From the IMG/VR virus record IMGVR_UViG_3300018080_002591, positions 1 to 54,049 of that record: DNA of 54,049 bases; one strand, written 5' to 3'. The notes under the pieces are model-generated. The model worked only from the letters and a program-made list of their open reading frames with translations, was not told where the DNA came from and made no database searches. Positions 3,297-50,276 of this stretch are shown in pieces; the stretch's first letter is position 1; each line of letters starts with the position of its first letter. The position numbers and the translations under genes were made by a program. This DNA comes from a virus. Lineage: Duplodnaviria; Caudoviricetes.

Positions 3297-4535
3297 ATGC
3301 TAAGTAAAGAACATAGAAATTTATTAAGAACTGAAATTGGAAGAAAATTTCTAATTGATAAAACATTAGAAGCAGTTCCGAAAGATAAGAACTGGCAAAA
3401 TTTTCACACCCCATATGATTTATGTGAAAAAATGATTTCAAAGACCGATGTTTCAAATAAAAGTATTCTTGTATTATTTAATATAGAATTTATAGAAACA
3501 TTGATTTATAAATTTGGGGTTAGTAGTAAAAGTATTTTATTTATAGCAGATTGTAGAATAGAATCTGAAATGGCTGCAAAAATATATAAAGTAGATAATA
3601 TCATCGTTAATGATATTGATGAACTACAGGAGGTATTAAAAGGTATGAAGAAATTTGATTTATGTTTCAGTAATCCTCCATATACTGGAAGTTCGGATGT
3701 TGATATTATAAAATCTATACTACCAATATGTACAGAAATAATAGTAGTTCATCCAGCTGCATGGTTACTTGATAATAAATGTCTGAAAAAATCATATTTT
3801 ACAAAATATAGAGAAGAAATTAAAAATTATTGTGAAAGTGCATATATTTTTGATGGTAATGCTGCATTTAATATAACTGGCCCATGTAGTCCTTTTACAA
3901 TTTTTAAAATTAATAAAGGGCATAATAAAAAAATTTCAGTTAATTATTTTGATGAACAACAGTTTGATGTTGATTCTGTATATGATATTACGGTATTTGG
4001 CAATGATTGGATATCAATTGTAAAACCATTTTTTAATGTTATTAATGATTATTTAAATAATAATAATAATATTTGGGATTGGGAACATAGAATAATAAAA
4101 ACGATTCACGAAAATAAATATTATTGTCAATTTAGGTCACAAGAGCCTGGGTCTCCTGATAAAAGTGGTAGGTATATGTATGGAAAAGATTTTTATAGTA
4201 TAATTCAAAAAAATACATTATCTGAAAGATATAAAATAAATTATGACGATATCGATCTAACCGATAAAAGAATTAAATTTTGGTTTAATACAGAAATTGA
4301 AAGAAATAATTTTATAGAATATTTAAAAACGAATTTTGTTAGATTTTGTATTTCAATCTTCAAAACTAATGAAAATCTACATAGACGAGAGTTATGCTTA
4401 ATTCCAGTTATGGACTTTGCCCAAGAATGGACTGATGAAAAACTATATGAATTTTTTAATATACCTCAAGAAACTATAGATTATATCACAAACTTTTTTC
4501 CTGATGATATATATGGTTTAAGGAATAGAACATGA
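3297..4535 (+). CDS. Eco57I-like amino-methyltransferase / target-recognition subunit
   Basis: FDLCFSNPPY catalytic motif, NFHTPYDL at the N-terminus, C-terminal YLKTNFVRF...IPVMDF..WTDEKLYEFF typical of this MTase group. Confidence 0.8.
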   Translation: MLSKEHRNLLRTEIGRKFLIDKTLEAVPKDKNWQNFHTPYDLCEKMISKTDVSNKSILVLFNIEFIETLIYKFGVSSKSILFIADCRIESEMAAKIYKVDNIIVNDIDELQEVLKGMKKFDLCFSNPPYTGSSDVDIIKSILPICTEIIVVHPAAWLLDNKCLKKSYFTKYREEIKNYCESAYIFDGNAAFNITGPCSPFTIFKINKGHNKKISVNYFDEQQFDVDSVYDITVFGNDWISIVKPFFNVINDYLNNNNNIWDWEHRIIKTIHENKYYCQFRSQEPGSPDKSGRYMYGKDFYSIIQKNTLSERYKINYDDIDLTDKRIKFWFNTEIERNNFIEYLKTNFVRFCISIFKTNENLHRRELCLIPVMDFAQEWTDEKLYEFFNIPQETIDYITNFFPDDIYGLRNRT

Positions 4536-6445
4536 CTTATAATTCATTCGATGAATTTATAAACACATTAAGAAATCATCAAAAAACAGCTTTTGATGAA
4601 ATACAAAAATACCCAATTGGACAAGTGTTTATTCCAACTGGCACAGGAAAAACATGGATTCAAAAAGCTGTTCATGTAAATGATATGATTATAAAATCCA
4701 GTGAAAATAAAACTGGTGTATATGTAATTGGTGCACATAGATTATTATTATGTGAACAATTATTAGATGAAATAGTTGAATTAGCAAATAATTTTGATAT
4801 TAAATTTAGAATATTGTTTGTCGGGACGTTGGATTATAATCCAAAAATATCAAATGAAAGTATGGCTTCTACTAACGAAAAAGTTATTAATACATTCATT
4901 CAAAGTAGTATCGAAGATAATTATCATACAATCATATCTGCAACGTATCATAGTTTTGATCTTTTAACCAAAATACCAATTGATATTTGTACTTTTGATG
5001 AAGCTCATAATACAGTTAGTAATGATAGTGATCCAAAGATGTTTAGAAGGAATATTGAATTAGTAAAACCATTTATAAACCGTCAATATTTCTTTACAGC
5101 AACACCCAAAGCTATTGGTAAAACAGGTGGTCAGAGAGATGAACAATTTTATGGACCGATTTTATATAGTTTAAGTCCAAAGGAAGCAGTTGAAAGACTT
5201 GAAATTGTTCAACCAAAAATCCATACAGTTGATATAGATGGTTATTTTGATGAGAATGATGTTGTTCATAATAACAAATTATTTATAAAAACCATAAAAG
5301 AAACATTTACTGAACATGAAAAAGTTTTAAATAATATTGCAGCAAAACTTTTGGTAACTGGAAAAAATTTAGATCAAATACATCCTATATATAATGATTT
5401 AGGTTTTCAAGAATGGTGCAAATTAAATAATATTACATGTTTTCTATTTTCTTCAAGATTAGAAGAAAAATGTATAGTTGATTTTGATCCTTCTATTAAA
5501 TACAAAGAAAAATTAGAACAATTAAAACTTGATTTAAATCAAAGAGCGATCTTTTTTCATTTTGATATTTTATCAGAAGGAATAGATATTCCAAATATGA
5601 CTGGATGTCTTTTCTTTAGAAAACTAGAAACCAATGAAATTAAATTTATTCAAAACATTGGTAGATGTTCTAGGTTAATTATAGAAGATAGACAAAAAAT
5701 ATATAACAACGAAATATCTTCTATCGATGATATAAAAATGATAAAACCAGAATCATGGATTATTATACCATTATATTCAGCAAATGAATCAACAAGAAGA
5801 TATAAAAACATCTTAAGAAAATTAAGAGATACATATAATGTTCCATTCATTGATGTATTGATGAGCAGAAATGTTATTGGCAGTGAAGAAAAAGAAATAC
5901 ATTCAATAAATACATCAAATATAGAAGAATGTGATCAAAAAGATTTTTCTCTTAAACATGATTTCGAAGCAACCATGATTCAATTATTATTGGAAGAACT
6001 ACAAATTCAATTAGATCAATCAGATGATAAAGAAGAATTATTATCTGAATGGATTGATGAATCATATGGTGAAGCTGGTTTTGCATATGATCAACAACTT
6101 CTTCTTGAAGGTGCAAGAAAAGAAATAGAAACAAATATCTATGAAAGAAATAAACATGCTAGACAAAAATGTTTAGATCATCATGGTTATTCATGTAAAA
6201 TGTGTGGCAAAGAACTAGGAAAAATATATGGTCGAACAGCAGAATATGTTATTGAAGTTCATCATATTGTTCCATTATCACAAATTGGTAAACAATATAT
6301 AGTTGATCCAATAAAAGATCTAATTCCAATTTGCCCTGATTGTCATACAATTACCCACATGAAAACACCATGTTATACAATTGAAGAAATAAAAGAATTG
6401 TTAAAAAATAGGAGTCTAAATGAAAAGAAAAACGATAACAGTTGA
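4532..6445 (+). CDS. SF2 (DEAH) helicase fused to a C-terminal McrA-like HNH nuclease; putative restriction subunit
   Basis: PTGTGKT, FDEAH, FTATP, LSEGIDIP, QNIGRCSR; C-terminus YERNKHARQKCLDHHGYSCKMCG...EVHHIVPLS...DLIPICPDCH. Confidence 0.85.
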   Translation: MTYNSFDEFINTLRNHQKTAFDEIQKYPIGQVFIPTGTGKTWIQKAVHVNDMIIKSSENKTGVYVIGAHRLLLCEQLLDEIVELANNFDIKFRILFVGTLDYNPKISNESMASTNEKVINTFIQSSIEDNYHTIISATYHSFDLLTKIPIDICTFDEAHNTVSNDSDPKMFRRNIELVKPFINRQYFFTATPKAIGKTGGQRDEQFYGPILYSLSPKEAVERLEIVQPKIHTVDIDGYFDENDVVHNNKLFIKTIKETFTEHEKVLNNIAAKLLVTGKNLDQIHPIYNDLGFQEWCKLNNITCFLFSSRLEEKCIVDFDPSIKYKEKLEQLKLDLNQRAIFFHFDILSEGIDIPNMTGCLFFRKLETNEIKFIQNIGRCSRLIIEDRQKIYNNEISSIDDIKMIKPESWIIIPLYSANESTRRYKNILRKLRDTYNVPFIDVLMSRNVIGSEEKEIHSINTSNIEECDQKDFSLKHDFEATMIQLLLEELQIQLDQSDDKEELLSEWIDESYGEAGFAYDQQLLLEGARKEIETNIYERNKHARQKCLDHHGYSCKMCGKELGKIYGRTAEYVIEVHHIVPLSQIGKQYIVDPIKDLIPICPDCHTITHMKTPCYTIEEIKELLKNRSLNEKKNDNS

Positions 6446-8572: not shown

Positions 8573-9001
8573 ATGTATAGAATATCAAAAGAGTTCAGTT
8601 TTTCAATGGGGCATAGACTCAGCTGCCATCAAGGATTATGTAAAAATTTACATGGCCACAACTATTCAGTTGTTATAACATTGAAAAGTGAACATTTAAA
8701 TCCAAATGGAATGGTGATGGATTTCGGAGACTTGAAAGCAATAGCAGAAAATCACTTCAAACAATTTGATCATGCTACAATGATCAATAGAAGCGATGTA
8801 GATAGATTTATGAAATTGCAGCAAGAAATGCCATTCTTAAAAATTGTTGTAGTTGAATATGAACCAACCGCAGAAAACATGGCGAGGGAAATATTCAATT
8901 ATTTCAAAGGAGAAGTAGCAAAATATGAAGGTAACATAGAAGTAGATCAAGTTAGTATATATGAGACGGATTCGTCTCAAGCAACATATTCCGAAGATTA
9001 A
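8573..9001 (+). CDS. queD: 6-carboxy-5,6,7,8-tetrahydropterin synthase
   Basis: FSMGHRL, CKNLHGHNY, GMVMDFGDLK, FDH, PTAENMA, YET motifs. Confidence 0.92.
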   Translation: MYRISKEFSFSMGHRLSCHQGLCKNLHGHNYSVVITLKSEHLNPNGMVMDFGDLKAIAENHFKQFDHATMINRSDVDRFMKLQQEMPFLKIVVVEYEPTAENMAREIFNYFKGEVAKYEGNIEVDQVSIYETDSSQATYSED

Positions 9002-14513: not shown

Positions 14514-14965
14514 AAATAAAAAGCGATTTTGTTACAAATAGTTCATCAACTGCTTATATAATTTGTGTACCTAATGAGTTCATTCCTAGTGAAGAAGATA
14601 TACTACCTGAAATTAAAACTCTAAATGAAGAATATGAAGGGTTTGAACTACAAATGAAAACCAGTGAAGCTATACAACATATACAAAATTTATTTGAAGA
14701 TTTGAAGTTTGGAGAAACTTTAGATTGTTATGAATATGATGATTTTAAACCAGTGCCTTTTGGTGTTGTTTTAAATATATGTGAAAAATATAATTTCGTT
14801 CTAACTGGTTTTGAAATACATTTAGATGGACAACATATTTTACATGGACTCCAGCAAGAATTAATAGATAAATGGGTCATTGATACAAAATTAAAAGACA
14901 TAACAATTGAGGTAATTAATGAACAAAATAAGGATTGTAAATTGGCTATTAACAAGGAGATGTAA
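14510..14965 (+). CDS. FVTNSSS-motif protein, paralog 2
   Basis: ATGA overlap with the Rad50 stop; MKIKSDFVTNSSSTAYII. Confidence 0.75.
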   Translation: MKIKSDFVTNSSSTAYIICVPNEFIPSEEDILPEIKTLNEEYEGFELQMKTSEAIQHIQNLFEDLKFGETLDCYEYDDFKPVPFGVVLNICEKYNFVLTGFEIHLDGQHILHGLQQELIDKWVIDTKLKDITIEVINEQNKDCKLAINKEM

Positions 14966-15968
14966 TTTAAAATGTGATTATTGTGCAATAGTTAAAAATT
15001 ATGATGGCAAACCAGAAGAATATCCTGATATGGATCATTATATAAAAAATGAAATGACAACCGAACAAGTTCTTTCGGGGCTGGCAACAATCAAATTACA
15101 TAACCCAGATGCATTTCACATCTTTTATGGCGGTGAGCCGATGTTGAGGAAAGATTTGTCAACCATTATAAATTATTGTAATGATGAGGATATTCATTAT
15201 ACAATAATCTCAAACAATTCACCTGAAGTTATACCCTTAATTAAAAAATTAGTAAAAGAAACTAATGGAAAAATTAAAGGGTTTACCGCATCAGTTGATC
15301 CTGTAATATTTACAGAATCAAATGAATTAGATGATAAAGAAAAAGACCGAGTTATGAAGAGTCTGGCTGGGTTTGAAAATTTAAAAGAGATGAAAAAATA
15401 TTGCGATGATGTTGTTGCAGAAATAACAGTTATGAAACATAATCAACAATATTTATCCACATTGGTTGAAGTATTAACTACTGTTGGAATCAATAGCGAT
15501 ATAACATTTATTGATATTGCGAAAACGCCTTATTATGATTTTTCAAATATTTCAGATGAGGATTTGCTTGTTGAAAATTCACCCGAGCTAGCTGAACAAT
15601 TTCAATCAATTTCAGATGGCGATTTAGATGTTCATATGAAACGAACATTGCTACCTGAAATATGGAATATTCTTCCATCTAATATGGATTGTGGAATAGA
15701 TAAAAGTCTTCATAATATATCAATTGATGCAGATGGCAGTATTCGTTTGTGTTTAAGAATACGAGGCACATTATCTCCATCATTAGTTCCATCAATAGAT
15801 TCATTGTTCACAAAAGATTATAAAGTACATCCAGTTGCACATTCAATCATAAGCTCAGACAAAAAGAAGCATTGTAAATTATGCAATCATACTTGTCAAT
15901 TAATGAGCAAAATTATAGATGATAATAATTTAAGTCCTGATGATCTAGTACATCTGGACCGGAGGTAA
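14919..15968 (+). CDS. Radical SAM protein with C-terminal Cys-rich (SPASM/twitch-like) region
   Basis: CNLKCDYC, YGGEPMLR, SIDADGSIRLC, CKLCNHTC. Confidence 0.88.
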   Translation: MNKIRIVNWLLTRRCNLKCDYCAIVKNYDGKPEEYPDMDHYIKNEMTTEQVLSGLATIKLHNPDAFHIFYGGEPMLRKDLSTIINYCNDEDIHYTIISNNSPEVIPLIKKLVKETNGKIKGFTASVDPVIFTESNELDDKEKDRVMKSLAGFENLKEMKKYCDDVVAEITVMKHNQQYLSTLVEVLTTVGINSDITFIDIAKTPYYDFSNISDEDLLVENSPELAEQFQSISDGDLDVHMKRTLLPEIWNILPSNMDCGIDKSLHNISIDADGSIRLCLRIRGTLSPSLVPSIDSLFTKDYKVHPVAHSIISSDKKKHCKLCNHTCQLMSKIIDDNNLSPDDLVHLDRR

Positions 15969-16675: not shown

Positions 16676-19342
16676 ATGACTGAATCAAAGGATTTGCAAT
16701 TAGAATTAGAAGAAATAAGGTTAAATAAATATTACTGTACACGGTCTGTTTCAAAATTTCCTGATGGAGAAAATGGAGATTCAACACCAATCCTTAATAG
16801 AAATACAATTAGAACACCCGAATTGATGAACAAGATCCAAAAGTATCATTCAATGTTAAAAACTGATTATCAAGTGGATCATCTATTTCCACCGAATTGT
16901 CGATATTATGAAAAACATCCAGAAGGGTTTTTCGTTGTAATTGAAGAACCCCCGGCATTTAGGACAATTAGTATTGACAAAGATTTATCAAGTGAAATTC
17001 AATCATTAAAAAGTTCAGGTCATTGGGAAGAATATGGTTATGAAAACTGGCAAAAAGAAAATCATGGACCCCCATATCAGTTTACATTAGCATTACCATA
17101 CACTGTATTTTGTTTAGCATTTACAGAATCATATGATCATTTGGGTGGTCAGGTATTTTTTAGAACACAACAGATCACAGGATTTAGTGATATTCTTCTA
17201 AAAGCGCCATTTTTAAATATAAGTGATAGTCATAATATTTGTTTTGGTAATAAGATACATCACGGTCCAAAAAGAAGTATATACGCAGATGTAAACCATG
17301 CAATATCAACATTCTGGTCAACAATATTCAATACAGATTATCTTTATAATTATGTTGCATATCAAAACATACCTCTATTATGTGACTATTTTACATGGCA
17401 ATATCATTCTAATATTGATCCAATGTTTATTTATAGTGCTGATTGGATCAAGGAAAAAGATATAACCATCGGTACACAAATTGATCGGATGAAAGCTTGG
17501 TTAAGCGAAAGATCATGCCATGACCATAAACAGTTCGAATATCGTACATTAAAAGATCTTTTTCAACAATCAAGTGAAAAAGGTCGTGCGAAGGTTCCTG
17601 GCGTTAAAGGTCTTACGGAACCATTGTTGTTTGATATTTCAAATTCAATGAAACTTGGCGAAAATGTATATGTTTCAGTTGGTGATTCATTTAAAAATAA
17701 TTACGATCAGATGATATATGTTGATTCTTATATGGGTTTTAGAAAAAGTCCAAGACCGTTATATATTAGTCTTGAACGTCACGATGGTAGGATATTTAAA
17801 TGGAAATTAACCAAAAAAGTTTGCGAATATATAGCAGAAAAGATTAAAGCCGAGCGTCATCTATCAGAAGCAACATTACCCAACGGTTTGGTAATAAAAA
17901 GTGGTGATATTCTGGAAATGAAAAATGCTTATGGCCAGAATATTTATCGTAAAATATTTTATATAAGATATTCTAGAACTGGTGAGGTTGAAGCACGAGT
18001 TGGTGCCGAATATTATATTGTCAATAATATCGAGAAAGATACACAAATTTTTGATGTATCTAACCCAAAATATTTTGACATGACATTATCTAAAGATGAA
18101 CAATATTATATAATCAAAAGAGATCATTTTGACGCAAATCATATAATTAAAGCAGCGTCATGTAATTTCGATAGCATAGATACTGGGCGCGATAGCGGCG
18201 GTTTAGTAATGAAGTTTAGAGAAAACAGAGGACTTGACCAAGGTCATCGATACAATATACCGATAGGATCAAACGAAAATACTTTCAGAAAAATTTATCC
18301 AATGGATAATTTGAAAACATTACCAGAAATATTTACAGTTGGTCGTCGTTTGATGTATATATATAGAGAGACGGAAACTGGAAGTATTGTCGAGAAAGAA
18401 CCAACCGTTATCCCGAATTTGGGGATTGTAATAGAGTATGCTTGCTCTATCAGAAAGGCAGCTTCCGACCAAATTGTCAAACATAATTTTATTCAGGATG
18501 ATCGTTTTGCTCTTGAAAGTTGGAATCATGTATATGATTTTGAAATTGGCGATAAAGTCGTTGTAGCAAATTGGGAAAACCCAATTGACATGCTAACGGT
18601 TAAACAAATTCAAGGATTTGTTGAAGATAAAAATACCGGCGATATCAGTTTTACTTTAGTTGATAAAAACGAAAACGTTACTAGTTATAAATATATCGAC
18701 GGTGCAAAGAGACTTGCGAGACTTGGTTCTGTTAGAAAAATTACTAATGTGTGGGGAGAATTAACTTCCGGCATGAAAATTGTTGCAAATCAAGCCAGAA
18801 TTAGTATGTTTCCGAAAAAGGATACCAATATAATTATTGGTTTTCTCTATGACACTGGTGGTGAAGAACCTTTAGTATTATGCTCAAATGCTAATACTTT
18901 ATGGTATAGCGATGTTATTAATAATTTCGATATAATAAAAATGGACGACGAAGCATGGAAAACCAAACAGCATGCTTCAATTAACCCATCAAAAATGAGA
19001 TATCAATCTGGAGATATACTTCAAGGTCAGCATTACTATAAAAATGATATAGGCTACTTAGTATACATACCTAGAGATCAACGAACAGTTAGAGCTTCAA
19101 GCTTAGCTTATTATCAGTCGTATGACGATAATTTTGTTTTTGATAAATCATTTACCGAAGATGTTATGTTTGATATCTTCCCTAACCCGAGATTGACAGT
19201 GACACAAGAAAACAAACTTGGTCTTGTAAATGTATTCCCTAATTTTCATGGAATGTTTACAAAAACTGACGAGTCTCACTCACCATACAAAGTTGCGAAT
19301 GACAGAAGGAGTATATTAAATGATGTTTCCAGTGATAATTAA
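16676..19342 (+). CDS. Prokaryotic E2 family D-like (PRTRC protein B-like) domain plus a long beta-rich C-terminal extension
   Basis: VVIEEPPAFRTI, FTLALPYTVF, LLKAPFLNISDSHNICFG (candidate catalytic Cys), FWSTIFN; directly upstream of JAB, E1 and Ubl genes. Confidence 0.7.
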   Translation: MTESKDLQLELEEIRLNKYYCTRSVSKFPDGENGDSTPILNRNTIRTPELMNKIQKYHSMLKTDYQVDHLFPPNCRYYEKHPEGFFVVIEEPPAFRTISIDKDLSSEIQSLKSSGHWEEYGYENWQKENHGPPYQFTLALPYTVFCLAFTESYDHLGGQVFFRTQQITGFSDILLKAPFLNISDSHNICFGNKIHHGPKRSIYADVNHAISTFWSTIFNTDYLYNYVAYQNIPLLCDYFTWQYHSNIDPMFIYSADWIKEKDITIGTQIDRMKAWLSERSCHDHKQFEYRTLKDLFQQSSEKGRAKVPGVKGLTEPLLFDISNSMKLGENVYVSVGDSFKNNYDQMIYVDSYMGFRKSPRPLYISLERHDGRIFKWKLTKKVCEYIAEKIKAERHLSEATLPNGLVIKSGDILEMKNAYGQNIYRKIFYIRYSRTGEVEARVGAEYYIVNNIEKDTQIFDVSNPKYFDMTLSKDEQYYIIKRDHFDANHIIKAASCNFDSIDTGRDSGGLVMKFRENRGLDQGHRYNIPIGSNENTFRKIYPMDNLKTLPEIFTVGRRLMYIYRETETGSIVEKEPTVIPNLGIVIEYACSIRKAASDQIVKHNFIQDDRFALESWNHVYDFEIGDKVVVANWENPIDMLTVKQIQGFVEDKNTGDISFTLVDKNENVTSYKYIDGAKRLARLGSVRKITNVWGELTSGMKIVANQARISMFPKKDTNIIIGFLYDTGGEEPLVLCSNANTLWYSDVINNFDIIKMDDEAWKTKQHASINPSKMRYQSGDILQGQHYYKNDIGYLVYIPRDQRTVRASSLAYYQSYDDNFVFDKSFTEDVMFDIFPNPRLTVTQENKLGLVNVFPNFHGMFTKTDESHSPYKVANDRRSILNDVSSDN

Positions 19343-21074
19343 TGATGGTACAGCAGAAATTCCGGATTCTGATATATATTATATTGTTGGTAAAGAAGGA
19401 GTTTTTCTAAAAAAGAAATTGGGTGTTATGGAAAGCATAGCCCCAGTCAAAAACATTTCAATATTAGAAAGCGTTCAATCAATGGCTAGGATGCATATCC
19501 GAAAAATTCCTGCAAAAAAGGCAAAGCAGATTCTAAACTTTTTCAAAGCCGTTTATGAAGAACATTATTCAGAAGCAATAGTACTTCTGTTTTACAATAT
19601 GGAGAAACAACATTATAAAGTTGTCGTTCCCGTTCAGGAAGTTAGTGGTGGTGCTGCAGATTATAATAAAGCAATCACTATCGATGGATATGATATGATC
19701 GGTACAATTCACAGTCACGCTGGAATGTCAGCATTTCATTCCGGTACAGATGACGATGATGAAAAATCATTTGATGGACTTCATATTACATTTGGTAATA
19801 TGCGAGATAAGGACATTAGCGTATCAGCGTCTATTGTTGCCAATGGTCATCGTATCATAGTAGACCCATCTGAATATATCAACAATATAGAAATGACAGT
19901 TGATATTGATGAAGAAGAAAAAGTCCCAATGGCACAAACATGGCGTTGGGACAAGGACCAGCATAAAATGGTTCAAGTTAAATCTGAGAAATTTTATACT
20001 AGACGTAAATTTGATCAACGATATCAGATTCACCTTGCAAAAGATCCAAAGTTTCCTGCTAATTGGATGGAACGTGTTACAAAGAAAACATATGTCAGTC
20101 AATATGCAGGCACTGGCTGGGCAGGTGGTTGGCAAGGTCATAACGCAGGTTATGATTCGGATTATTGGAAAGATTGGAAAGGTCATGGCGTTCAGGCTAA
20201 TAAACCAGGCACAGTAACTCCAACTAAACAAAACAAAACTACGCCAGCAACAGTTCCGAATAAACCAACCGTTGTATCGAAGGAAACTCCATGCGATGCG
20301 TGTTCATTCAAACATCATAAAATTAATCTTAGCATTGAGAGGATGGATGACGAAACTAAAAAAGCTATATTAGCATGGGCGATTGAAAAACTAGAGGGTA
20401 ATAATTATCAAGTTGTACCCGGAGAAGAAGTAGATGAAACTGGATTAACCCATTATCATTGCGCAGGCTGCCAGGAATACATTTCAGTTGATGAAAACAC
20501 TGAAGGTAGTGCATGTTGTCCAAATTGTCAAACTGATGATTATCTAATTGAGGTTTCTTCTCAAGAAATCATGATGGAGGTTGGTGGTACATATGAAGAA
20601 GATGATTCGACTACCGGCAATATGATTAAATGTGAAGAATGTGGAAGTTCGTTTACCGAAGATTTTTTAAATGATGGTCATTGTCCTACATGTAATACTT
20701 TATTACCTGTAGAAGTTGATACTGAACTTGATGCATCTGATGACATTGTAATTTGTCCTGATTGTTTCAAAGAAAATGATCTGATGGAACTGGCGGTTGA
20801 TAATAAATGCTTCTATTGTTCATGTGAGATTTCTCCATATGAAATCGCCGAATTATTGAGGCAACGAAACCGTGGTAGAGATCCATTGGAAAATCAAATG
20901 GATAATGATTCTGGCGCCTTTTTAGATCCAGAAAAAGAGGCAATCGAACGAATCGCACAAGATGATATAGAACGTATCCCAGTTCCTGATAGCGATTCAA
21001 CGCCAATCACTAAAACTAAAACAGGAGTTTTTGCTTCAATATTTGAAAAAGCAAAAGCTTTAAGAAAAGGTTAA
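19320..21074 (+). CDS. JAB/MPN+ metalloisopeptidase with C-terminal zinc-ribbon array
   Basis: SEAIVLL...GTIHSHAGMSAFHSGTDDDDE (E-x-HxH-x7-S-x2-D JAMM motif), GLHITFG; CxxC pairs CDAC, CAGC/CPNC, CEEC/CPTC, CPDC/CFYC. Confidence 0.88.
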   Translation: MMFPVIINDGTAEIPDSDIYYIVGKEGVFLKKKLGVMESIAPVKNISILESVQSMARMHIRKIPAKKAKQILNFFKAVYEEHYSEAIVLLFYNMEKQHYKVVVPVQEVSGGAADYNKAITIDGYDMIGTIHSHAGMSAFHSGTDDDDEKSFDGLHITFGNMRDKDISVSASIVANGHRIIVDPSEYINNIEMTVDIDEEEKVPMAQTWRWDKDQHKMVQVKSEKFYTRRKFDQRYQIHLAKDPKFPANWMERVTKKTYVSQYAGTGWAGGWQGHNAGYDSDYWKDWKGHGVQANKPGTVTPTKQNKTTPATVPNKPTVVSKETPCDACSFKHHKINLSIERMDDETKKAILAWAIEKLEGNNYQVVPGEEVDETGLTHYHCAGCQEYISVDENTEGSACCPNCQTDDYLIEVSSQEIMMEVGGTYEEDDSTTGNMIKCEECGSSFTEDFLNDGHCPTCNTLLPVEVDTELDASDDIVICPDCFKENDLMELAVDNKCFYCSCEISPYEIAELLRQRNRGRDPLENQMDNDSGAFLDPEKEAIERIAQDDIERIPVPDSDSTPITKTKTGVFASIFEKAKALRKG

Positions 21075-21076
21075 TT

Positions 21077-21754
21077 ATGGAAATAGTTGTTATTGGATTA
21101 GGTGGTGTTGGTTCTCTGTTATGTGAAAGAATGGCAAGATACTTAGCTTATTCATCAGGGACCAAAGCAAGCATGTTGTTAGTTGATGGTGACTCTTATG
21201 AAGCCAAAAACTTCGAAAGACAAGACTTCACCCAAATGGGCAACAAAGCTGAAGTAAAAGCTGCTGATTTAAAAATGCAGTTTTCAATGTTAAATGTAAG
21301 TTCATTCCCTGCCTTCGTGAATGAAACCAATCTTGCTCAAGTTATTAAAGAAGGTACTATTGTTTTTAGTTGTGTAGATAATCATAAAACCAGAATGATA
21401 CTTTCAAACTATTGCAAAGAATTACAAAATGTTACATTGATTTCTGGTGGGAATGATCTCATTGATGGGAACGTACAGATTTATATAAGGCAAAATGGAA
21501 AAGATATTACTCCAGACCTTTGTGCGTATCATCCAGAGATTGCAAATCCCGATGATAAGTTACCCGAAGAGATGTCATGCGAAGAATTAGCAGCTTCAGA
21601 ACCACAATTATACTTCGCTAATCTCGGTGTTGCAACCATTATGTGTTGGGCGTTTTATAACGCCATTGTCAAGGGCCAGCATGAAAAGTCAGAGATTTAT
21701 TTTGATCTTACTCAAATGACTTCTATTGCTAAACAAAGAATCGTGAAAAACTAA
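21077..21754 (+). CDS. E1-like ThiF/MoeB adenylyltransferase
   Basis: VIGLGGVGS, LVDGDSYEAKNFERQ, NKAE, CVDNHKTR, SGGN, MSCEE (candidate thioester Cys). Confidence 0.92.
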   Translation: MEIVVIGLGGVGSLLCERMARYLAYSSGTKASMLLVDGDSYEAKNFERQDFTQMGNKAEVKAADLKMQFSMLNVSSFPAFVNETNLAQVIKEGTIVFSCVDNHKTRMILSNYCKELQNVTLISGGNDLIDGNVQIYIRQNGKDITPDLCAYHPEIANPDDKLPEEMSCEELAASEPQLYFANLGVATIMCWAFYNAIVKGQHEKSEIYFDLTQMTSIAKQRIVKN

Positions 21755-21756
21755 CC

Positions 21757-21771
21757 TGACTTTCAAAGTCA
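21757..21771. promoter_or_regulatory. Perfect 7-bp inverted repeat upstream of the Ubl gene
   Basis: TGACTTT-C-AAAGTCA. Confidence 0.4.
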
Positions 21772-21804
21772 AAAACAAAAAAATGTGAAAAGGAATTAAA
21801 AATT

Positions 21805-22278
21805 ATGGCACAGTACAAAAGAGAAACTTTAGAAGACAAAACCGTTCGTGATCTCCGTCAACTCGTAGTAAAATTGGGTATCCCTGGATTCACCAAGAAA
21901 CCTAAAAGCGTTATCATTGACGCTATTATGGCCAAACATGGTGTTACCGGCGCGGCCGCATCAATTGCCGCAGATGGCCCAGCCGCTGCTAAACCTCTTG
22001 ACGGAGTAGAAGCAACCTTCCAATCTTCAGTAACCAAACCTTCCCTGAAAAAAGGTGAACGTCTCAGCACAACACTTCAGGTATCCTGTGGTGCTTCTTC
22101 TGGTCGTTTTCCTGTTGCTGGAAGAACCGTTGCCGAAGTTGGGGATTTCCTTCGGGAAGTTCTTAATGTAGACAAACTTTCAACCGGTCTTGTAAACGGT
22201 AAAGAAGTTGATGGAAGCTATGTGCTTAAATCAGGCGATACTCTTGAATTCCTGAAACCAGCTGGGAAGAAAGGTTAA
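21805..22278 (+). CDS. Ubiquitin-like (beta-grasp) protein with an N-terminal Rho-N/HeH-like domain
   Basis: N-terminal LEDKTVRDLRQLVVKLGIPGFTKKPKSVIIDAI; Ala-rich linker; C-terminal GRTVAEV...LVNGKEVDGSYVLKSGDTLEFLKPAGKKG ending in Gly. Confidence 0.85.
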   Translation: MAQYKRETLEDKTVRDLRQLVVKLGIPGFTKKPKSVIIDAIMAKHGVTGAAASIAADGPAAAKPLDGVEATFQSSVTKPSLKKGERLSTTLQVSCGASSGRFPVAGRTVAEVGDFLREVLNVDKLSTGLVNGKEVDGSYVLKSGDTLEFLKPAGKKG

Positions 22279-22290
22279 TATCCTTTTAAA

Positions 22291-22316
22291 TGAGGGGCTC
22301 CTTTGGGAGTCCCTCA
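22291..22316 (+). terminator. GC-rich stem-loop after the Ubl gene (terminator or mRNA stabiliser)
   Basis: tgaggggctcc-tttg-ggagtccctca, 11 bp with one G-U; no U-tract on the + strand. Confidence 0.55.
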
Positions 22317-22359: not shown

Positions 22360-23265
22360 ATGAATCGAATAGCTGTAATTGGACTAGGCACACTCGGCGG
22401 AGCCGTATGTAAAAATTTATCAACAATGGAATGTATAGAAGAACTGGTTCTTGTTGATTTTGATATTTTAGAAAGTCGTAATATTCATAATTCGGTATAT
22501 CGCGCATCACAAATTGGAGATCGAAAAGTTGACGCTCTCACAGAAATTATCGAAGACGATATTGACATAATACCGATTCATGAAAAATATAAAGAAGGAA
22601 AAACAAATCTTCCTGAATGTGATTTAATTGTAGATTGTAGAGATGTTGTATGTAACAGAGGAAAAGAAATCGATGTTCGATTATACATAACAGGTAAAAT
22701 TCTTATCATTGATTGTAGAAAAAACATTCGCACTCAACATATTTATAAAGGTTCATATAGAAGTCAATTGTCAAAAAGTGAGTTGAACAGTGCAGGTTTC
22801 TTTGCTTCGCAAATATTATGTAGCGATCAAATAACAAAAATGAAAGAACAAAATTTGGTTCAAAAAATTGATTTGAATTTATTACCAACACTAATAAATA
22901 ACGAAATGACAGAAAAAAATAAAAATCGAATTGATATTGTTTATGATTCAGCAGTTGGTGATAGACTTCAATGTCTTGAAGAAAACATAGAACCAATACT
23001 TTGTTTAAGCAGGACAAAGGATATTGATGTTTTTATAGGCGAAAAACATTTTGATCCATTTAAAAAATTAAATAAGTTACCACAAGTTGCAAAAACAAAA
23101 TACGCTGTAATCCCTCATAATTCTCTAAACAATTCAAATGATTTGATCAAAGCTTTAACAAATATAGTAAAAGAACAATGTAACATAGTTAATTTTATTG
23201 TTACATTACGAAAAGTGAATGGAGAAACGTTTATTGAATTACTCGAAGAAACCGGAGCAGCCTAA
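22360..23265 (+). CDS. Second, divergent ThiF/E1-like protein
   Basis: VIGLGTLGG, LVDFDILESRNIHNS, IGDRKVDAL, LIVDCRD; unrelated C-terminal half. Confidence 0.8.
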   Translation: MNRIAVIGLGTLGGAVCKNLSTMECIEELVLVDFDILESRNIHNSVYRASQIGDRKVDALTEIIEDDIDIIPIHEKYKEGKTNLPECDLIVDCRDVVCNRGKEIDVRLYITGKILIIDCRKNIRTQHIYKGSYRSQLSKSELNSAGFFASQILCSDQITKMKEQNLVQKIDLNLLPTLINNEMTEKNKNRIDIVYDSAVGDRLQCLEENIEPILCLSRTKDIDVFIGEKHFDPFKKLNKLPQVAKTKYAVIPHNSLNNSNDLIKALTNIVKEQCNIVNFIVTLRKVNGETFIELLEETGAA

Positions 23266-26557: not shown

Positions 26558-26739
26558 GAGATCCAAATAGAATAGAACCAATGTTGACGTTAATTCGAAA
26601 GATCTGGTATCGTTCTCCAGATCTTCGATTAACCCAATTAATTATGAATGCATTAAAGATGGCTGAAGATCCATATTATGTAGAAGACGAAACTCTAATA
26701 AAAGCATTAAAAGAATATATAGAAATGGTGGAGGATTAA
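26554..26739 (+). CDS. Small hypothetical protein (MRDPNRI family)
   Basis: ATGA overlap; MRDPNRI...W...PDLRLTQL...DPYYVED. Confidence 0.7.
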   Translation: MRDPNRIEPMLTLIRKIWYRSPDLRLTQLIMNALKMAEDPYYVEDETLIKALKEYIEMVED

Positions 26740-30353: not shown

Positions 30354-31199
30354 ATGGAATCATTGCCCGATGTACAATGTACAGCACCAGAAATAAACAT
30401 TCCGATAATGCAAGTTGGAGTCGAGAATGTTGAAGTACCTTTTAGACTAGAATCTAAATATGGAGGGTTTCATCAACTAACAGCTAACGTTCAAATGACA
30501 GCAAATCTTGATGAAAATACTAAAGGGATTTCAATGTCTCGACTTCTATTAACATTAAAACCATATTTAGATTTGCCGTTAAAAAGAACTTTAATAAATC
30601 AGATTCTTGAGGATCTTATCAAAAATCTAGAAACAGAAATAGTTACAATGAAATTTGAATTCCGGATGCCAGTAATGAGAAAGTCAATCAAAACAGATAA
30701 TGAATTTCCTATTTACTATAATTGTAAATTTGAAATGAAAAGACATATGAGCGAGAGTATTGATATGACTTGGTTTTATCAGGGAGTGCAGGTTCAATAT
30801 GCATCATATTGTCCATGCTCTGCTGAACTTTGTGGGGCGTTAGAAGAAAATGGTTATCCACATAACCAAAGATCATTTGCTGACGTCCTTGTTGAAGTTG
30901 TTGAACCTAATTATGTATGGCTGGAAGATATTATAGAAACAGTTGAATCAGAAATTTATACATTACCATATCCAATTATTAAAAGAGTTGATGAACAGGA
31001 AATTGCTCGAATTGCTGCACAGAATCCAATGTTTGTTGAAGATGCAATTCGCAAGATATCTCTAGCACTCAATTCAAGAGAAGACATTTACGATTGGATT
31101 GTAAAATGCTCACATGAAGAGTCAATACATACATCTGAAGCTATTGCAATTAATTGGAAAGGTATAGCAAACGGATTCGACGGAAGGCGTTATATATGA
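30354..31199 (+). CDS. folE2: GTP cyclohydrolase FolE2 (type IB)
   Basis: LPDVQ, QVGV, KGISMSR, YCPCS, PHNQRS, KRVDEQ, NPMFVEDAIR, HEESIH. Confidence 0.92.
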   Translation: MESLPDVQCTAPEINIPIMQVGVENVEVPFRLESKYGGFHQLTANVQMTANLDENTKGISMSRLLLTLKPYLDLPLKRTLINQILEDLIKNLETEIVTMKFEFRMPVMRKSIKTDNEFPIYYNCKFEMKRHMSESIDMTWFYQGVQVQYASYCPCSAELCGALEENGYPHNQRSFADVLVEVVEPNYVWLEDIIETVESEIYTLPYPIIKRVDEQEIARIAAQNPMFVEDAIRKISLALNSREDIYDWIVKCSHEESIHTSEAIAINWKGIANGFDGRRYI

Positions 31200-35809: not shown

Positions 35810-37060
35810 ATGGCAGCATCTACCACACCTTTATTAACCGAATGGCATCCTGATGTCACATATGATTTTGTATTGCGAATAGGTGAAGATGATTATTCAA
35901 CTGACCTTATTAATGTTGAAATTAAAACATCAATAACACAACCATATCAACATATAATTCTTGATGTACGAATGAATGTAGATGATATTTTAGAAAATAC
36001 ATTGTTTGGTCAAAATGAAATAAAATTAATTATAAAGTTGATAGGTACTGACAAAAATAGATTTGCCGATGATATTGTATTTGAATTAATGTATATTGAT
36101 ACACTTACAGAATATTCTCCAGTACAACAAGCATCGGAAACAGATCAAGTAGAAAGAAAAGTTACAAGGTTTAAAACTGTATGTATAAATGCATATCAAT
36201 CAATGTCCACTATGGTAAATAAAATATATTTTAACAAAAAACCAGATGAAATTATAACAGACTTAGTTAAAGCTACTTCAGCAGAACTTGAGTATGATAC
36301 AGTGGGAAAAAGTAGTCTAAATATTGATCAACTATTAATTCCACCAACTACTTTTTATAATGTTATAAATTATCTTGATAAAACATATGGTCTTTTTAAG
36401 GGTCCTATGGCTGTACATGCTACACATGACAATAAAATTAAAGTTCAAAATTTAAATAAGAAACCAAATATGGCACAAATGATAACTCTTTATCTTATAG
36501 CAACCGATAAGAACGAAAAAGAAATATTTGAATCAGAGGATGCAAGTGTATTTTACACAAGAGACGCAGTTGCTAGTTCATATAAAGGCAATGCTGTATT
36601 TTCTGTTCAAGCTCCAACTATAAAATATATCGTTAAACCGAGAGATGCATTATCAAAAACACATGATATTTCTTTAGTTGGAGAAATACAAAAATATGGA
36701 GTAATTGAAAAAAATAATCCAACAGTTTATTATAATGGTGCGGCAATATCTCCATTTAAAAGAATTGGTTTTGAAAAAGATCATACTGGGTATGATGATG
36801 ATCAAACATTTATCCATTCAAATTTAAGTCAGAATATTTTAGATATGGCAACAATTATAGCAGATGTAGCAGGAAGTTTGCCAGTTTTAAATTTAATGGC
36901 AGTTGGAGAACATGTTAAGATTGTAAGTCATACTGATTCAAGGTTAAAACTTTCTGGGTCATATATTTTAAAAGGTAGTTCTGTTATATTTTTAAAAGCA
37001 ACAACATGGGAAGCAAATGGTAGATTATTTTTGAGTAGATCAAATATCGCTCAACAATAA
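35810..37060 (+). CDS. Putative virion structural protein (baseplate hub-like)
   Basis: First gene of the structural block; beta-rich; C-terminal VGEHVKI...LSGSYILK resembles hub/gpD-type proteins (weak). Confidence 0.5.
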   Translation: MAASTTPLLTEWHPDVTYDFVLRIGEDDYSTDLINVEIKTSITQPYQHIILDVRMNVDDILENTLFGQNEIKLIIKLIGTDKNRFADDIVFELMYIDTLTEYSPVQQASETDQVERKVTRFKTVCINAYQSMSTMVNKIYFNKKPDEIITDLVKATSAELEYDTVGKSSLNIDQLLIPPTTFYNVINYLDKTYGLFKGPMAVHATHDNKIKVQNLNKKPNMAQMITLYLIATDKNEKEIFESEDASVFYTRDAVASSYKGNAVFSVQAPTIKYIVKPRDALSKTHDISLVGEIQKYGVIEKNNPTVYYNGAAISPFKRIGFEKDHTGYDDDQTFIHSNLSQNILDMATIIADVAGSLPVLNLMAVGEHVKIVSHTDSRLKLSGSYILKGSSVIFLKATTWEANGRLFLSRSNIAQQ

Positions 37061-43200: not shown

Positions 43201-44478
43201 ATGCCAACAAATGTAGGAAATCCACAAAACAAACAAATTGGATTATTAGATGTATTTGGTTATCCTCCGGATAATATACATCCTCGAACAACATTAGAAA
43301 TGAAAAAAAGTCTACCTGTAGTTAAATTTTTTCCATCTCTTCCCAGTTTTCAAAAGGGATCTAGTTTGTTTACCTTAGCTCCAGCTTGGATTGAATATTC
43401 ACAATTATTAAAAGATAATGGTTATACTATAAATGGTGGTAAAGATAATGGAATACAATTAGCTTTTCTAGCTGATAATTTTCCAACCGATACATTTACA
43501 AATGAATATGGAGAAAACTTCTTACAAAAATTTACTGATATTGCATCTGAAGGTGCTGCTTCGATATCACAAATGTTTGGTGCAGAAAAAGCTACTGATG
43601 TAATTAAAAATGCTTCCACTAATTTGAAAGCTTCTGAAAATGTTGGTGCTAAAGCTGTAGGTCAAACTTTGGGGTTTGCTCATGATATGGGTTCATCTGT
43701 TGCACAGCAATTAAGTAAAATCAGTACAGGTTTAGCTGGAGGTGGAGATTTAGTAAATACTCTTATGGCAGGTGGGCGTTTAGATTTTCCAATGGTATGG
43801 AAAACAAGTTCATATCAACCATCATATTCAATGACTGTTAGATTATATAATCCATATCCACAAAGTGATAAAGCTACACAAAAATATATTATCGGTCCAA
43901 TTGTTGCAATTATGTTATTGGGTGTACCAAGAGCAAGAAATGCATCTTCATATACATGGCCATTTTTTCATAGAATTGAATGTCCTGGTTTGTTTGATTT
44001 GAATCCAGGTTTTATAAGCAATATTACCGTAGTTAAAGGAGGAGATCAACAACAAATATCTTTCCAACAACGATTAGGTATTGTAGATATAAGAATAGAT
44101 GTGGGTAGTTTATACAGTAGTATGATAGCAGGAAAAAGCATTAATTCTGAAAGACCAACTGTTTCAAAATATGCAAAAACAATGGCAGGTGAAAGAAAAG
44201 TAACTAACAGACAACAGGATAATTCTTCAATTAGTGAATCTGTAGGAGACAATGCTATTGGCTCAACAACATCACGAACAGATATAGAAAAATTATATGA
44301 ATTAAGATCAAAAGGGTATAATTCTCCAATACCATCTTTTCTTGATATTGATGGTTATAGAATACCTAAACCAGCAAGTCCAAAAATTCAAGCAGAAGCT
44401 GAAGACTTATCACTTGGTGGTAGAGTTACATCAGAAGAAAGTACTACATATTTTGAATTGAAAAAATTAGGTGGTTAA
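43201..44478 (+). CDS. Putative baseplate/tail-tube initiator protein
   Basis: Follows the tape measure; FPMVWKTSSYQPSYSMTVRL, FISNITVVKG resemble tube-fold baseplate proteins. Confidence 0.5.
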   Translation: MPTNVGNPQNKQIGLLDVFGYPPDNIHPRTTLEMKKSLPVVKFFPSLPSFQKGSSLFTLAPAWIEYSQLLKDNGYTINGGKDNGIQLAFLADNFPTDTFTNEYGENFLQKFTDIASEGAASISQMFGAEKATDVIKNASTNLKASENVGAKAVGQTLGFAHDMGSSVAQQLSKISTGLAGGGDLVNTLMAGGRLDFPMVWKTSSYQPSYSMTVRLYNPYPQSDKATQKYIIGPIVAIMLLGVPRARNASSYTWPFFHRIECPGLFDLNPGFISNITVVKGGDQQQISFQQRLGIVDIRIDVGSLYSSMIAGKSINSERPTVSKYAKTMAGERKVTNRQQDNSSISESVGDNAIGSTTSRTDIEKLYELRSKGYNSPIPSFLDIDGYRIPKPASPKIQAEAEDLSLGGRVTSEESTTYFELKKLGG

Positions 44479-50185: not shown

Positions 50186-50224
50186 GTTAATACTCCTTTC
50201 GGTTCGTGTCTAATTTATTTTTCG

Positions 50225-50251
50225 AAATAAAGGGGCGTGATTAGCGCCCCT
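50225..50251 (-). terminator. Intrinsic terminator-like hairpin
   Basis: Minus strand aggggcg-ctaatca-cgcccct then ttattt, downstream of ORF 50277..51221. Confidence 0.65.
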
Positions 50252-50276
50252 ATATAGGTTTATTATCCTTTCTACC

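Follow-up and report, generated by a model that had tools for sequence, protein, structure and literature searches.

A helix-extended-helix domain fused to a ubiquitin-like protein in a candidate conjugation cassette of a giant phage lineage

The IMG/VR virus record IMGVR_UViG_3300018080_002591 (Caudoviricetes), which we analyzed over its whole length of 54,049 bases (hereafter the window), contains at positions 21805 to 22278 a gene for a 157-residue protein that combines a helix-extended-helix (HeH) domain with a ubiquitin-like (Ubl) domain. We propose that this HeH-Ubl gene encodes the modifier of a ubiquitin-like conjugation cassette in the phage core genome and that the HeH domain is retained on the modifier as a tether; we give this reading a probability of about one half. 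Its parts differ in strength. That HeH, a linker, and a beta-grasp domain ending in glycine follow one another in the protein is as good as certain, and the genes of the surrounding cassette make it probable that the protein is a conjugated modifier. Nucleic acid binding by the HeH domain falls, in our estimate, slightly short of an even chance, and the complete chain of events, with conjugated HeH-Ubl acting as a DNA/RNA-tethering tag, would be tentative and on balance doubtful.

Domain architecture of HeH-Ubl

The gene and the parts of its product lie as follows. Identities are pairwise means among 44 close relatives, and pLDDT is the predicted local distance difference test score of the AlphaFold2 (AF2) model.

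21790..21794, plus strand: Shine-Dalgarno core AAGGA, read from the sequence, 10 nucleotides 5' of the ATG
21805..22278, plus strand: HeH-Ubl gene, an open reading frame (ORF) from ATG to TAA, 157 amino acids plus stop, the sole sizeable frame there
21817..21942, plus strand: Rho_N-type HeH domain, residues ~5-46, from Pfam, family profile, and AF2; identity 59%
21943..22002, plus strand: flexible linker rich in Ala, Gly, and Pro, residues 47-66, with low pLDDT, 22% identity, and variable length
22003..22074, plus strand: conserved pre-Ubl segment (FQSS.TKP...), residues 67-90, with 54% identity, pLDDT 54-79, and two short strands
22075..22275, plus strand: beta-grasp ubiquitin-like domain, residues 91-157, ending PAGKKG, from VIA and AF2; identity 78%

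The start codon is the first ATG past an in-frame stop, and AAGGAG-type sites are found at equal spacing upstream of the Ubl gene in the relatives displayed. A word-indexed search returned 398 homologues, the best 120 of which are 136 to 175 residues long and 58 to 100% identical, and a full HMMER scan extended the family to 479 cluster representatives at E ≤ 0.001.

The HeH assignment draws its strength from the family. In the window protein, Pfam Rho_N (PF07498) matches residues 9 to 45 with an E-value of 7.9e-4 and 19.8 bits (gathering score, 24.9). Among 110 aligned relatives, Rho_N is matched by 59 at E ≤ 0.01 (best, 9.1e-12), SAP by 9, and the HeH model by 2. A profile built from these relatives matches the N terminus of Thermotoga Rho (3l0o, residues 7 to 53) with an E-value of 3.4e-5, and 13 of the 19 PDB rows matched by the family profile are Rho. 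Consistent with this, the AF2 model from 110 sequences has helices at residues 6 to 11, 14 to 24, and 34 to 45 in a block of pLDDT 85 to 97; the latter two are linked via an extended stretch (residues 25 to 33, pLDDT 96 to 97), which is the layout of a helix-extended-helix fold. The mean pLDDT was 68 with a shallow alignment and 81.9 with the 110 sequences. Searched with Foldseek, the first model found, as the sole structural row for the N-terminal domain, Escherichia coli Rho (1a63) over 42 columns with a root mean square deviation (rmsd) of 1.3 Å, at a weak E-value of 0.49 and rank 25; the better full-length model gave no PDB row at E ≤ 0.001, and the N-terminal domain was not among the 50 rows displayed. 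Taken together, the HeH assignment is clear at the level of the family and subthreshold in the window protein alone. Furthermore, the domain is evidently under constraint, to judge from its 59% identity against 22% in the linker.

The beta-grasp domain is clear as well. AF2 predicts strands at residues 91 to 95, 98 to 102, 128 to 130, and 146 to 149 and a helix at residues 109 to 120. All 50 rows listed by VIA are beta-grasp proteins, with MoaD on top (2q5w_D; Z 8.6, rmsd 3.2, 66 residues aligned), and Fubi (8.5), ISG15 (8.1), and SAMP1 and TtuB (both ~7) among the others. The Foldseek rows for the Ubl are also all beta-grasp, at weak E-values, and a BFVD fold search returned weak beta-grasp rows alone (E ≥ 1.2e-3). 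Subthreshold Pfam matches of the window protein are to TGS (residues 123 to 151, E 6e-4) and ThiS (E 0.014), each of which matches 24 of the 110 relatives. Since the VIA scores are effectively tied, the fold alone cannot separate a modifier from a sulfur carrier.

The close-family alignment shows no variation at G154, K156, and G157. Of the 120 closest relatives, 65 have G as their last residue, 54 have G-C (a one-residue Cys cap after the Gly), and 1 has G-L. The window protein ends in PAGKKG directly followed by TAA, and trimming is therefore unneeded. Thus, all three elements that the initial annotation had read from the letters were recovered: the Rho-N-like helix-extension-helix at residues ~5 to 45, for which structure prediction gives the matching fold; the Ala-rich linker (8 of 20 residues are Ala, and pLDDT is <50 at residues 50 to 53 and 55 to 59); and a Gly-terminated Ubl that needs no processing.

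Look-alike clusters in the Atlas are 98 to 100% viral, with Rho_N on 51% and 15% of their members. A pattern scan of 185,579 cellular species genomes, with patterns that fit close relatives only, gave two matches of 21 to 24 residues without cassette genes alongside, which we take as chance.

The cassette and the case for a modifier

HeH-Ubl is encoded amid genes that resemble those of ubiquitin-type conjugation.

16676..19342, plus strand: E2-like protein, 888 amino acids, with the E2 core in its N-terminal third; Prok-E2_D in relatives; N181 and C189 invariant
19320..21074, plus strand: JAB/JAMM metalloprotease, 584 amino acids, with a Cys-rich C-terminal half; Prok-JAB at 26.1 bits (gathering score, 25)
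21077..21754, plus strand: E1 (ThiF-type adenylating enzyme), 225 amino acids; ThiF at E 5.4e-20
22360..23265, plus strand: second ThiF-like protein (E1'), 301 amino acids, partly degenerate; ThiF at E 6.8e-13

The genes run in the order radical SAM gene, p123, E2-like, JAB, E1, Ubl, second ThiF, o149, (o73), and RNA polymerase beta'. As far as each locus reaches, the order p349-p123-E2-like-JAB-E1-Ubl-second ThiF is identical in all of 55 IMG/VR loci. A second scan, seeded with stand-alone Ubls and with many loci on contigs shared with the first set, found the exact string E2-like-JAB-E1-HeH-Ubl-second ThiF in 54 of 73 loci, the remainder being mostly truncated or duplicated forms. Identities to the window proteins are 44 to 92% for the Ubl, 49 to 90% for E1, and 55 to 89% for RNA polymerase beta', so that Ubl and E1 are about as conserved as the polymerase subunit; the E2-like protein, JAB, and the second ThiF-like protein are mostly 26 to 50% identical to those of the window.

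The record is rated ~17% complete and therefore represents a fragment of a genome of ~300 kb. The window also encodes T4-like baseplate and terminase proteins, topoisomerase II, SbcCD, helicases, and a multisubunit RNA polymerase; no tRNA genes were found in it. Its terminase is ≤29% identical to those of T4-like and huge phages in GenBank. Among GenBank phages, neither the cassette DNA nor, by tblastn at E ≤ 0.01, the Ubl had a match, and a search with E1 found four distant ThiF genes alone (27 to 29% identity). PHROGs held no match for the Ubl, the E2-like protein, or JAB, and NCBIfam none for the Ubl.

The residues expected of working enzymes are conserved. In E1, the motif GLGGxG and the residues D37, N45, R48, Q49, K57, D101, N102, R106, C168, and C190 are invariant in 34 sequences. 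The sole match of the E2-like protein is Prok-E2_D, which was found in 30 of 34 relatives at a best E of 9.8e-7. All 34 sequences share N181 and C189, which lie within an LNIS......ICFG stretch that, in our reading, resembles the HPN...C site of E2 enzymes. Its profile gave no match to PDB sequences at E ≤ 1. In JAB, the JAMM residues E85, H131, H133, S141, and D144 are invariant in 40 sequences. From these conserved catalytic residues, the cassette enzymes look active.

The C-terminal half of JAB, as read from the translation, contains several CxxC pairs resembling zinc ribbons; this tail could provide Ubl-binding or E3-like modules. Missing from the second ThiF-like protein is the RQ pair; it retains the glycine loop and several Asp residues, and its C terminus is conserved as ...ETGAA (...AVGGA in one locus, L114). 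Its identity across loci is 29 to 79%, versus 49 to 90% for E1. Two roles are conceivable: that of the inactive partner in a heterodimeric E1, or that of a protein with an activatable tail of its own.

What would be expected of a modifier system is present together: an E1 with an intact adenylation site, an E2-like protein with an invariant Cys, a JAMM protease, and a C-terminal Gly on the Ubl. The beta-grasp domain has another possible explanation, in which the Ubl is a sulfur carrier (a ThiS/MoaD/TtuB-like thiocarboxylate) for thio-modification of nucleic acid, HeH holds the carrier on its substrate, and JAB matures or recycles it. The best structural match is to MoaD, the list also includes TtuB and ThiS-like proteins, ThiS matches part of the family, and E1 is a minimal enzyme of the ThiF/MoeB type. 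The single Cys tail of the 54 relatives can also be likened to that of JAMM-processed carriers like CysO and QbsE. Proteins of the ThiS/MoaD/TtuB and SAMP types share with the phage Ubl a beta-grasp of the same size (Z 7.0 to 8.6) and a ThiF-type E1 partner, and SAMPs a JAMM partner as well. They differ from it in three respects: the phage Ubl has a K-G instead of a G-G tail, a dedicated E2-like enzyme, and the N-terminal HeH. We consider a sulfur carrier improbable, because sulfur-carrier pathways use no E2 and the E2-like protein, with an Asn and a Cys that are invariant, is a fixed part of the cassette. The K-G tail also speaks against it, no sulfurtransferase was seen among the ORFs scanned, and, with QueD-like (PTPS) and FolE2 genes also present, a 7-deazaguanine pathway is the better fit for the nearby radical SAM gene.

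The radical SAM gene (14919-15968) had been a candidate link to a sulfur pathway and was set aside for that reason. The PTPS/QueD-like gene (8573-9001, E 1.7e-34) and the FolE2 gene (30354-31199, E 1.2e-63) together with it point to a queuosine-type (7-deazaguanine) pathway, which may serve to modify DNA.

The HeH domain as a possible tether

The fusion of HeH to Ubl is a property of the cassette and not of the window alone. HeH is present on the Ubl in 67 of the 68 IMG/VR loci that have upstream sequence. The exception (L115, positions ~3500-6200 of a 572-kb contig) has a short E2-like gene, JAB, E1, and a bare Ubl without HeH, and a second ThiF was not detected within the locus. Sorted with our own hidden Markov models, 151 cluster representatives comprised 87 proteins with HeH-Ubl, 14 with HeH-HeH-Ubl, 35 with Ubl only, 10 with 2 to 4 tandem Ubls, 4 with HeH only (mostly fragments), and 1 with six HeH repeats. 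The fused share is a lower bound, because several "Ubl only" proteins with long N termini show a divergent HeH by eye. Variants exist within cassettes too: one locus (L067) has two tandem HeH-Ubl genes, another (L114, 983-2356) has such a pair together with a free protein of three HeH domains, which at 58.7 bits exceeds the gathering score of Rho_N, and in a third (L059, 1365-1691) a free HeH protein whose tail is an acidic repeat is encoded directly upstream of the E2-like gene. In all, the HeH copy number in cassette loci ranges between 1 and 4. Nearly every cassette contains the HeH-Ubl fusion, and HeH belongs to its design.

With respect to function, the charge of the domain is informative. 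At three positions, Lys or Arg is kept in 93%, 93%, and 98% of 243 HeH copies; the first long helix contains one of these positions and the G.xK..K connector the other two. HeH has a net charge of +5 in the window protein; among 119 close relatives the mean is +4.85, and 114 of them are positive. These basic residues and the homology to the HeH/SAP/Rho_N class may hint at binding of nucleic acid, and on the same two grounds the tag would be one of relocalization rather than of degradation, as the initial annotation had suggested; this is the weakest step of the argument.

The mechanism that we envisage starts with the adenylation of Gly157 by E1. The Ubl would then move to Cys189 of the E2-like protein and from there to lysines of target proteins, and JAB would reverse the conjugation and, in the relatives ending in G-C, also trim the one-residue Cys tail. 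Since HeH would remain on the Ubl, each conjugation would add a small basic module of the DNA/RNA-binding class to the target. Equivalently, the pool of free modifier could be concentrated on nucleic acid, so that DNA-bound proteins get modified. It is imaginable, though rather unlikely on present evidence, that HeH-Ubl serves as a covalent nucleic-acid handle which holds phage or host proteins on the phage genome. Such targets might be proteins that are copackaged and injected with the DNA, for example the neighboring RNA polymerase, or proteins concentrated on replicating DNA. The HeH copy number (1 to 4) would tune the avidity, and free HeH proteins would compete.

A different role for the domain would be protein docking: HeH would recruit the Ubl to a cassette enzyme, a target, or a reader, and the tag would mark proteins for recognition. 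In its favor, the charge of distant HeH copies varies widely, and the free HeH proteins of the two cassettes mentioned above could compete for the same partner. Moreover, bacterial Ubls are reported to carry N-terminal N/G-rich tails, coiled coils, or DUF1508, which are read as self-association modules in PMC11601603. Docking is nevertheless unlikely in our view, since the three basic positions are kept in 93 to 98% of the HeH copies and close relatives are strongly basic; a copy number of 1 to 4 fits avidity for a polymer, and no partner was indicated by the analyses run.

Alternatively, HeH and the linker could act as a pro-region, lost before the Ubl is activated or in the course of activation, with residues 67 to 90 as one conceivable cleavage site. 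The conjugated species would then be the plain Ubl, and HeH would serve storage or localization of the precursor. The 54% identity of segment 67-90, which lies outside the minimal beta-grasp, the existence of stand-alone relatives of 68 to 77 residues and of tandem poly-Ubl relatives, and the protease encoded in the cassette would fit this. The reading is very improbable. JAB/JAMM enzymes of Ubl systems cleave after the C-terminal Gly and not N-terminal to the fold, and no Gly-type cleavage motif is found ahead of the beta-grasp.

Several findings weigh against a conjugated modifier with HeH as a tether. Every Pfam match of the window protein itself falls under its gathering score. MoaD sulfur carriers match the beta-grasp as well as modifiers do, with Z differences of <1. 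Segment 67-90, which is absent from the stand-alone relatives of 68 to 77 residues, could be a processing or recognition site. Distant HeH copies (n = 94) have a mean charge of +1.2 (62 positive and 23 negative, range −6 to +8). Finally, Rho makes its RNA contacts mainly in the OB-fold and not in the N-terminal helical subdomain, and Rho_N homology is for this reason a weak argument for nucleic acid binding. The phage domain shares with the Rho N-terminal subdomain and the SAP/LEM/HeH class the profile match to Rho residues 7 to 53, the three-helix layout, and the Lys-bearing extended connector, and the Pfam models SAP and HeH match some of the phage relatives; it differs from Rho in that no OB-fold follows and that it is joined to a Ubl.

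Expression signals and relation to known systems

The sequences that flank the gene contain two conspicuous features.

22291..22316, plus strand: GC-rich hairpin with an 11-bp stem and a 4-nucleotide loop, 13 nucleotides past the stop codon; −21.4 kcal/mol, z −3.7
21757..21771, no strand assigned: 15-nucleotide palindrome TGACTTTCAAAGTCA between the E1 and Ubl genes, the sole exact copy in the window

The initial annotation had pointed to both, and they fared differently. The hairpin (arms 22291-22301 and 22306-22316) is a family trait: past the Ubl stop, a hairpin of ≤ −13.8 kcal/mol is found in 44 of 44 distinct relatives and one of ≤ −18 kcal/mol in 40 of them, and the stem sequences differ while the shape is retained. 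By comparison, when 660 windows were drawn at random from these loci, 1.4% reached −13.8 kcal/mol. The palindrome is indeed present, as a subclade feature. Perfect inverted repeats with arms of ≥6 occur in 4 of 37 distinct E1-Ubl intergenic regions, versus 0.72 expected from shuffles, and a family-wide regulatory site was therefore rejected; as an RNA hairpin the palindrome is negligible (z 0.25). Rfam gave no family between 21500 and 22600 at E ≤ 1.

Within the 54-kb window, the Ubl hairpin is one of six of ≤ −15 kcal/mol on the scanned strand. It may be a terminator for the phage's own polymerase or a stabilizer of the 3' end. Further hairpins of this uncommon strength (−15 to −25 kcal/mol) are located between genes or at their ends, at 245-280, 26594-26629, and 50221-50256, one boundary hairpin directly past the RNA polymerase beta' gene; the strong boundary hairpins may be transcript-end signals of the phage. 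In some relatives the Ubl hairpin also precedes an extra ORF of 188 to 202 codons without a Pfam match, located between the hairpin and the second ThiF gene (8516-9082 in L007, 8530-9138 in L020).

The Ubl gene also stands out in its codon usage. Its GC content is 0.46 versus 0.32 for the window and is the highest of 45 ORFs; the amino acid composition of the Ubl leads to an expected 0.39, about half of the excess. At third codon positions the GC content (GC3) is 0.31, versus 0.17 expected from composition and background codon use (z 4.6, 0 of 5000 simulations), again at the top of the 45 ORFs. CGT, ACC, GCC, and CTN codons are used in place of AGA, ACA, GCA, and TTA; CGT encodes 4 of the 7 Arg, ACC 7 of the 11 Thr, and GCC 5 of the 16 Ala. 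In a set of 47 six-gene loci that includes near-duplicates, the GC3 of the Ubl gene exceeds the mean of its four neighbors in every locus, by 0.17 on average (+0.03 to +0.39). A gene richer in GC and in CGT, ACC, and GCC codons than its neighbors, as originally noticed, is thus a feature of the family.

Together, the family-wide synonymous bias, the AAGGA site, and the conserved 3' hairpin suggest high expression of the Ubl, and they would agree with an abundant, stabilized message that ends at the Ubl gene. On the other side stand two points. A run of T is absent after the window hairpin and most of its copies, and a terminator scan made no call for the window copy. In addition, the structural genes, with which the initial annotation would have compared the codon adaptation of the Ubl, deviate the other way: putative virion genes at 43201-44478 and 35810-37060 have GC3 z-values of −4.6 and −3.5, at a GC3 of 0.11 to 0.12. 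The bias of the Ubl is hence no shared late-gene signature and need not mean high expression. There are two codon-usage classes within one phage, with Ubl and E1 skewed opposite to the putative virion genes. One possibility is that the bias of the Ubl reflects the adaptation of an abundant non-late gene to the host tRNA pool. The low GC3 (0.11 to 0.12, z −3.5 to −4.6) is seen at 43201-44478, 35810-37060, and 4532-6445 and comprises virion and some other genes.

Among known systems, the closest in gene content is the PRTRC cassette (TIGR03735/TIGR03736), which we regard as the type 6d operon described by Iyer, Burroughs, and Aravind (2006). A ParB-related gene would presumably be expected in it from the name of the system; no ParB family is among the Pfam matches of the window ORFs scanned, several neighbors being without any match. 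Like the phage cassette, type 6d is a single operon in which Ub-like, JAB, and E1-like genes are joined by one for a stand-alone E2-like protein, as described in the relevant passages of PMC1779556. The function of both is putative. The best NCBIfam match of the phage JAB is PRTRC_A (E 4e-11; 42.8 bits, under the cutoff of 101.8), the match of E1 to PRTRC_ThiF spans almost the entire length (E 9e-11; 41.5 bits, under the cutoff of 144.75), and the phage E2-like protein matches Pfam Prok-E2_D. The hallmarks given in the same passages of PMC1779556 are a His that follows the catalytic Cys of E2 and is absolutely conserved (Table 1, row 6d) and an N-terminal alpha+beta domain of JAB marked by a conserved Arg and Trp. 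The phage E2-like proteins (34 sequences) have no invariant or near-invariant His past C189, and the phage JABs (40 sequences) have no invariant or near-invariant Arg or Trp before the JAMM Glu; the phage cassette is therefore a diverged relative and not a member. Furthermore, it adds the second ThiF-like gene, an E2-like protein of 888 and a JAB of 584 residues, and the HeH on the Ubl, the last of which is unmentioned in those passages of the 2006 account. It is fixed in a giant-phage core genome beside RNA polymerase genes, whereas the published type resides on plasmids and integrative and conjugative elements.

The Bil and Bub operons likewise combine a bacterial Ubl, E1, E2, and a JAB or peptidase, according to PMC11601603 and PMC11601596. 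Relatives of the phage Ubl family also occur as 2 to 4 tandem beta-grasp repeats. The words Rho, HeH, and DNA-binding are absent from the main text of PMC11601603, the supplementary tables of which may list more architectures. The Bil/Bub systems are bacterial and directed against phages, whereas the HeH-Ubl cassette is encoded by a phage. In the 2023 library of PADLOC, which may lack Bub models, no match was found for the Ubl, the E2-like protein, or JAB at E ≤ 0.01, and both ThiF proteins match solely the E1 part of the CBASS "E1-E2" models. A jumbo-phage review (PMC7824862) contains the word ubiquitin twice, in text on eukaryotic viruses and in the reference list, and the words HeH, ThiF, and JAB are absent from it. 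A fusion of HeH or Rho_N to a Ubl, or a phage-core cassette of E1, E2, JAB, and Ubl, was not found described in the freely accessible literature searched. The design of a HeH-bearing ubiquitin-like modifier is, in that literature, undescribed.

With its conserved 3' hairpin and a codon bias of its own, the Ubl gene would be a clean case of gene-level expression tuning within a phage operon. HeH-Ubl is small and easily expressed, and the set of E1, E2-like protein, JAB, and Ubl should therefore be directly reconstitutable. Bacterial ubiquitin-like tagging has so far been tied to antiphage defense; here, the putative tagging machinery is a fixed core module of a giant, uncultured phage lineage. 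We know of no ubiquitin-type modifier that works via a binding domain of its own. If our model is correct, HeH-Ubl would be the first ubiquitin-type modifier with a DNA/RNA-binding payload, run by the core genome of a bacterial virus, and if HeH indeed binds nucleic acid, tagging would change the location of a protein and not its survival.

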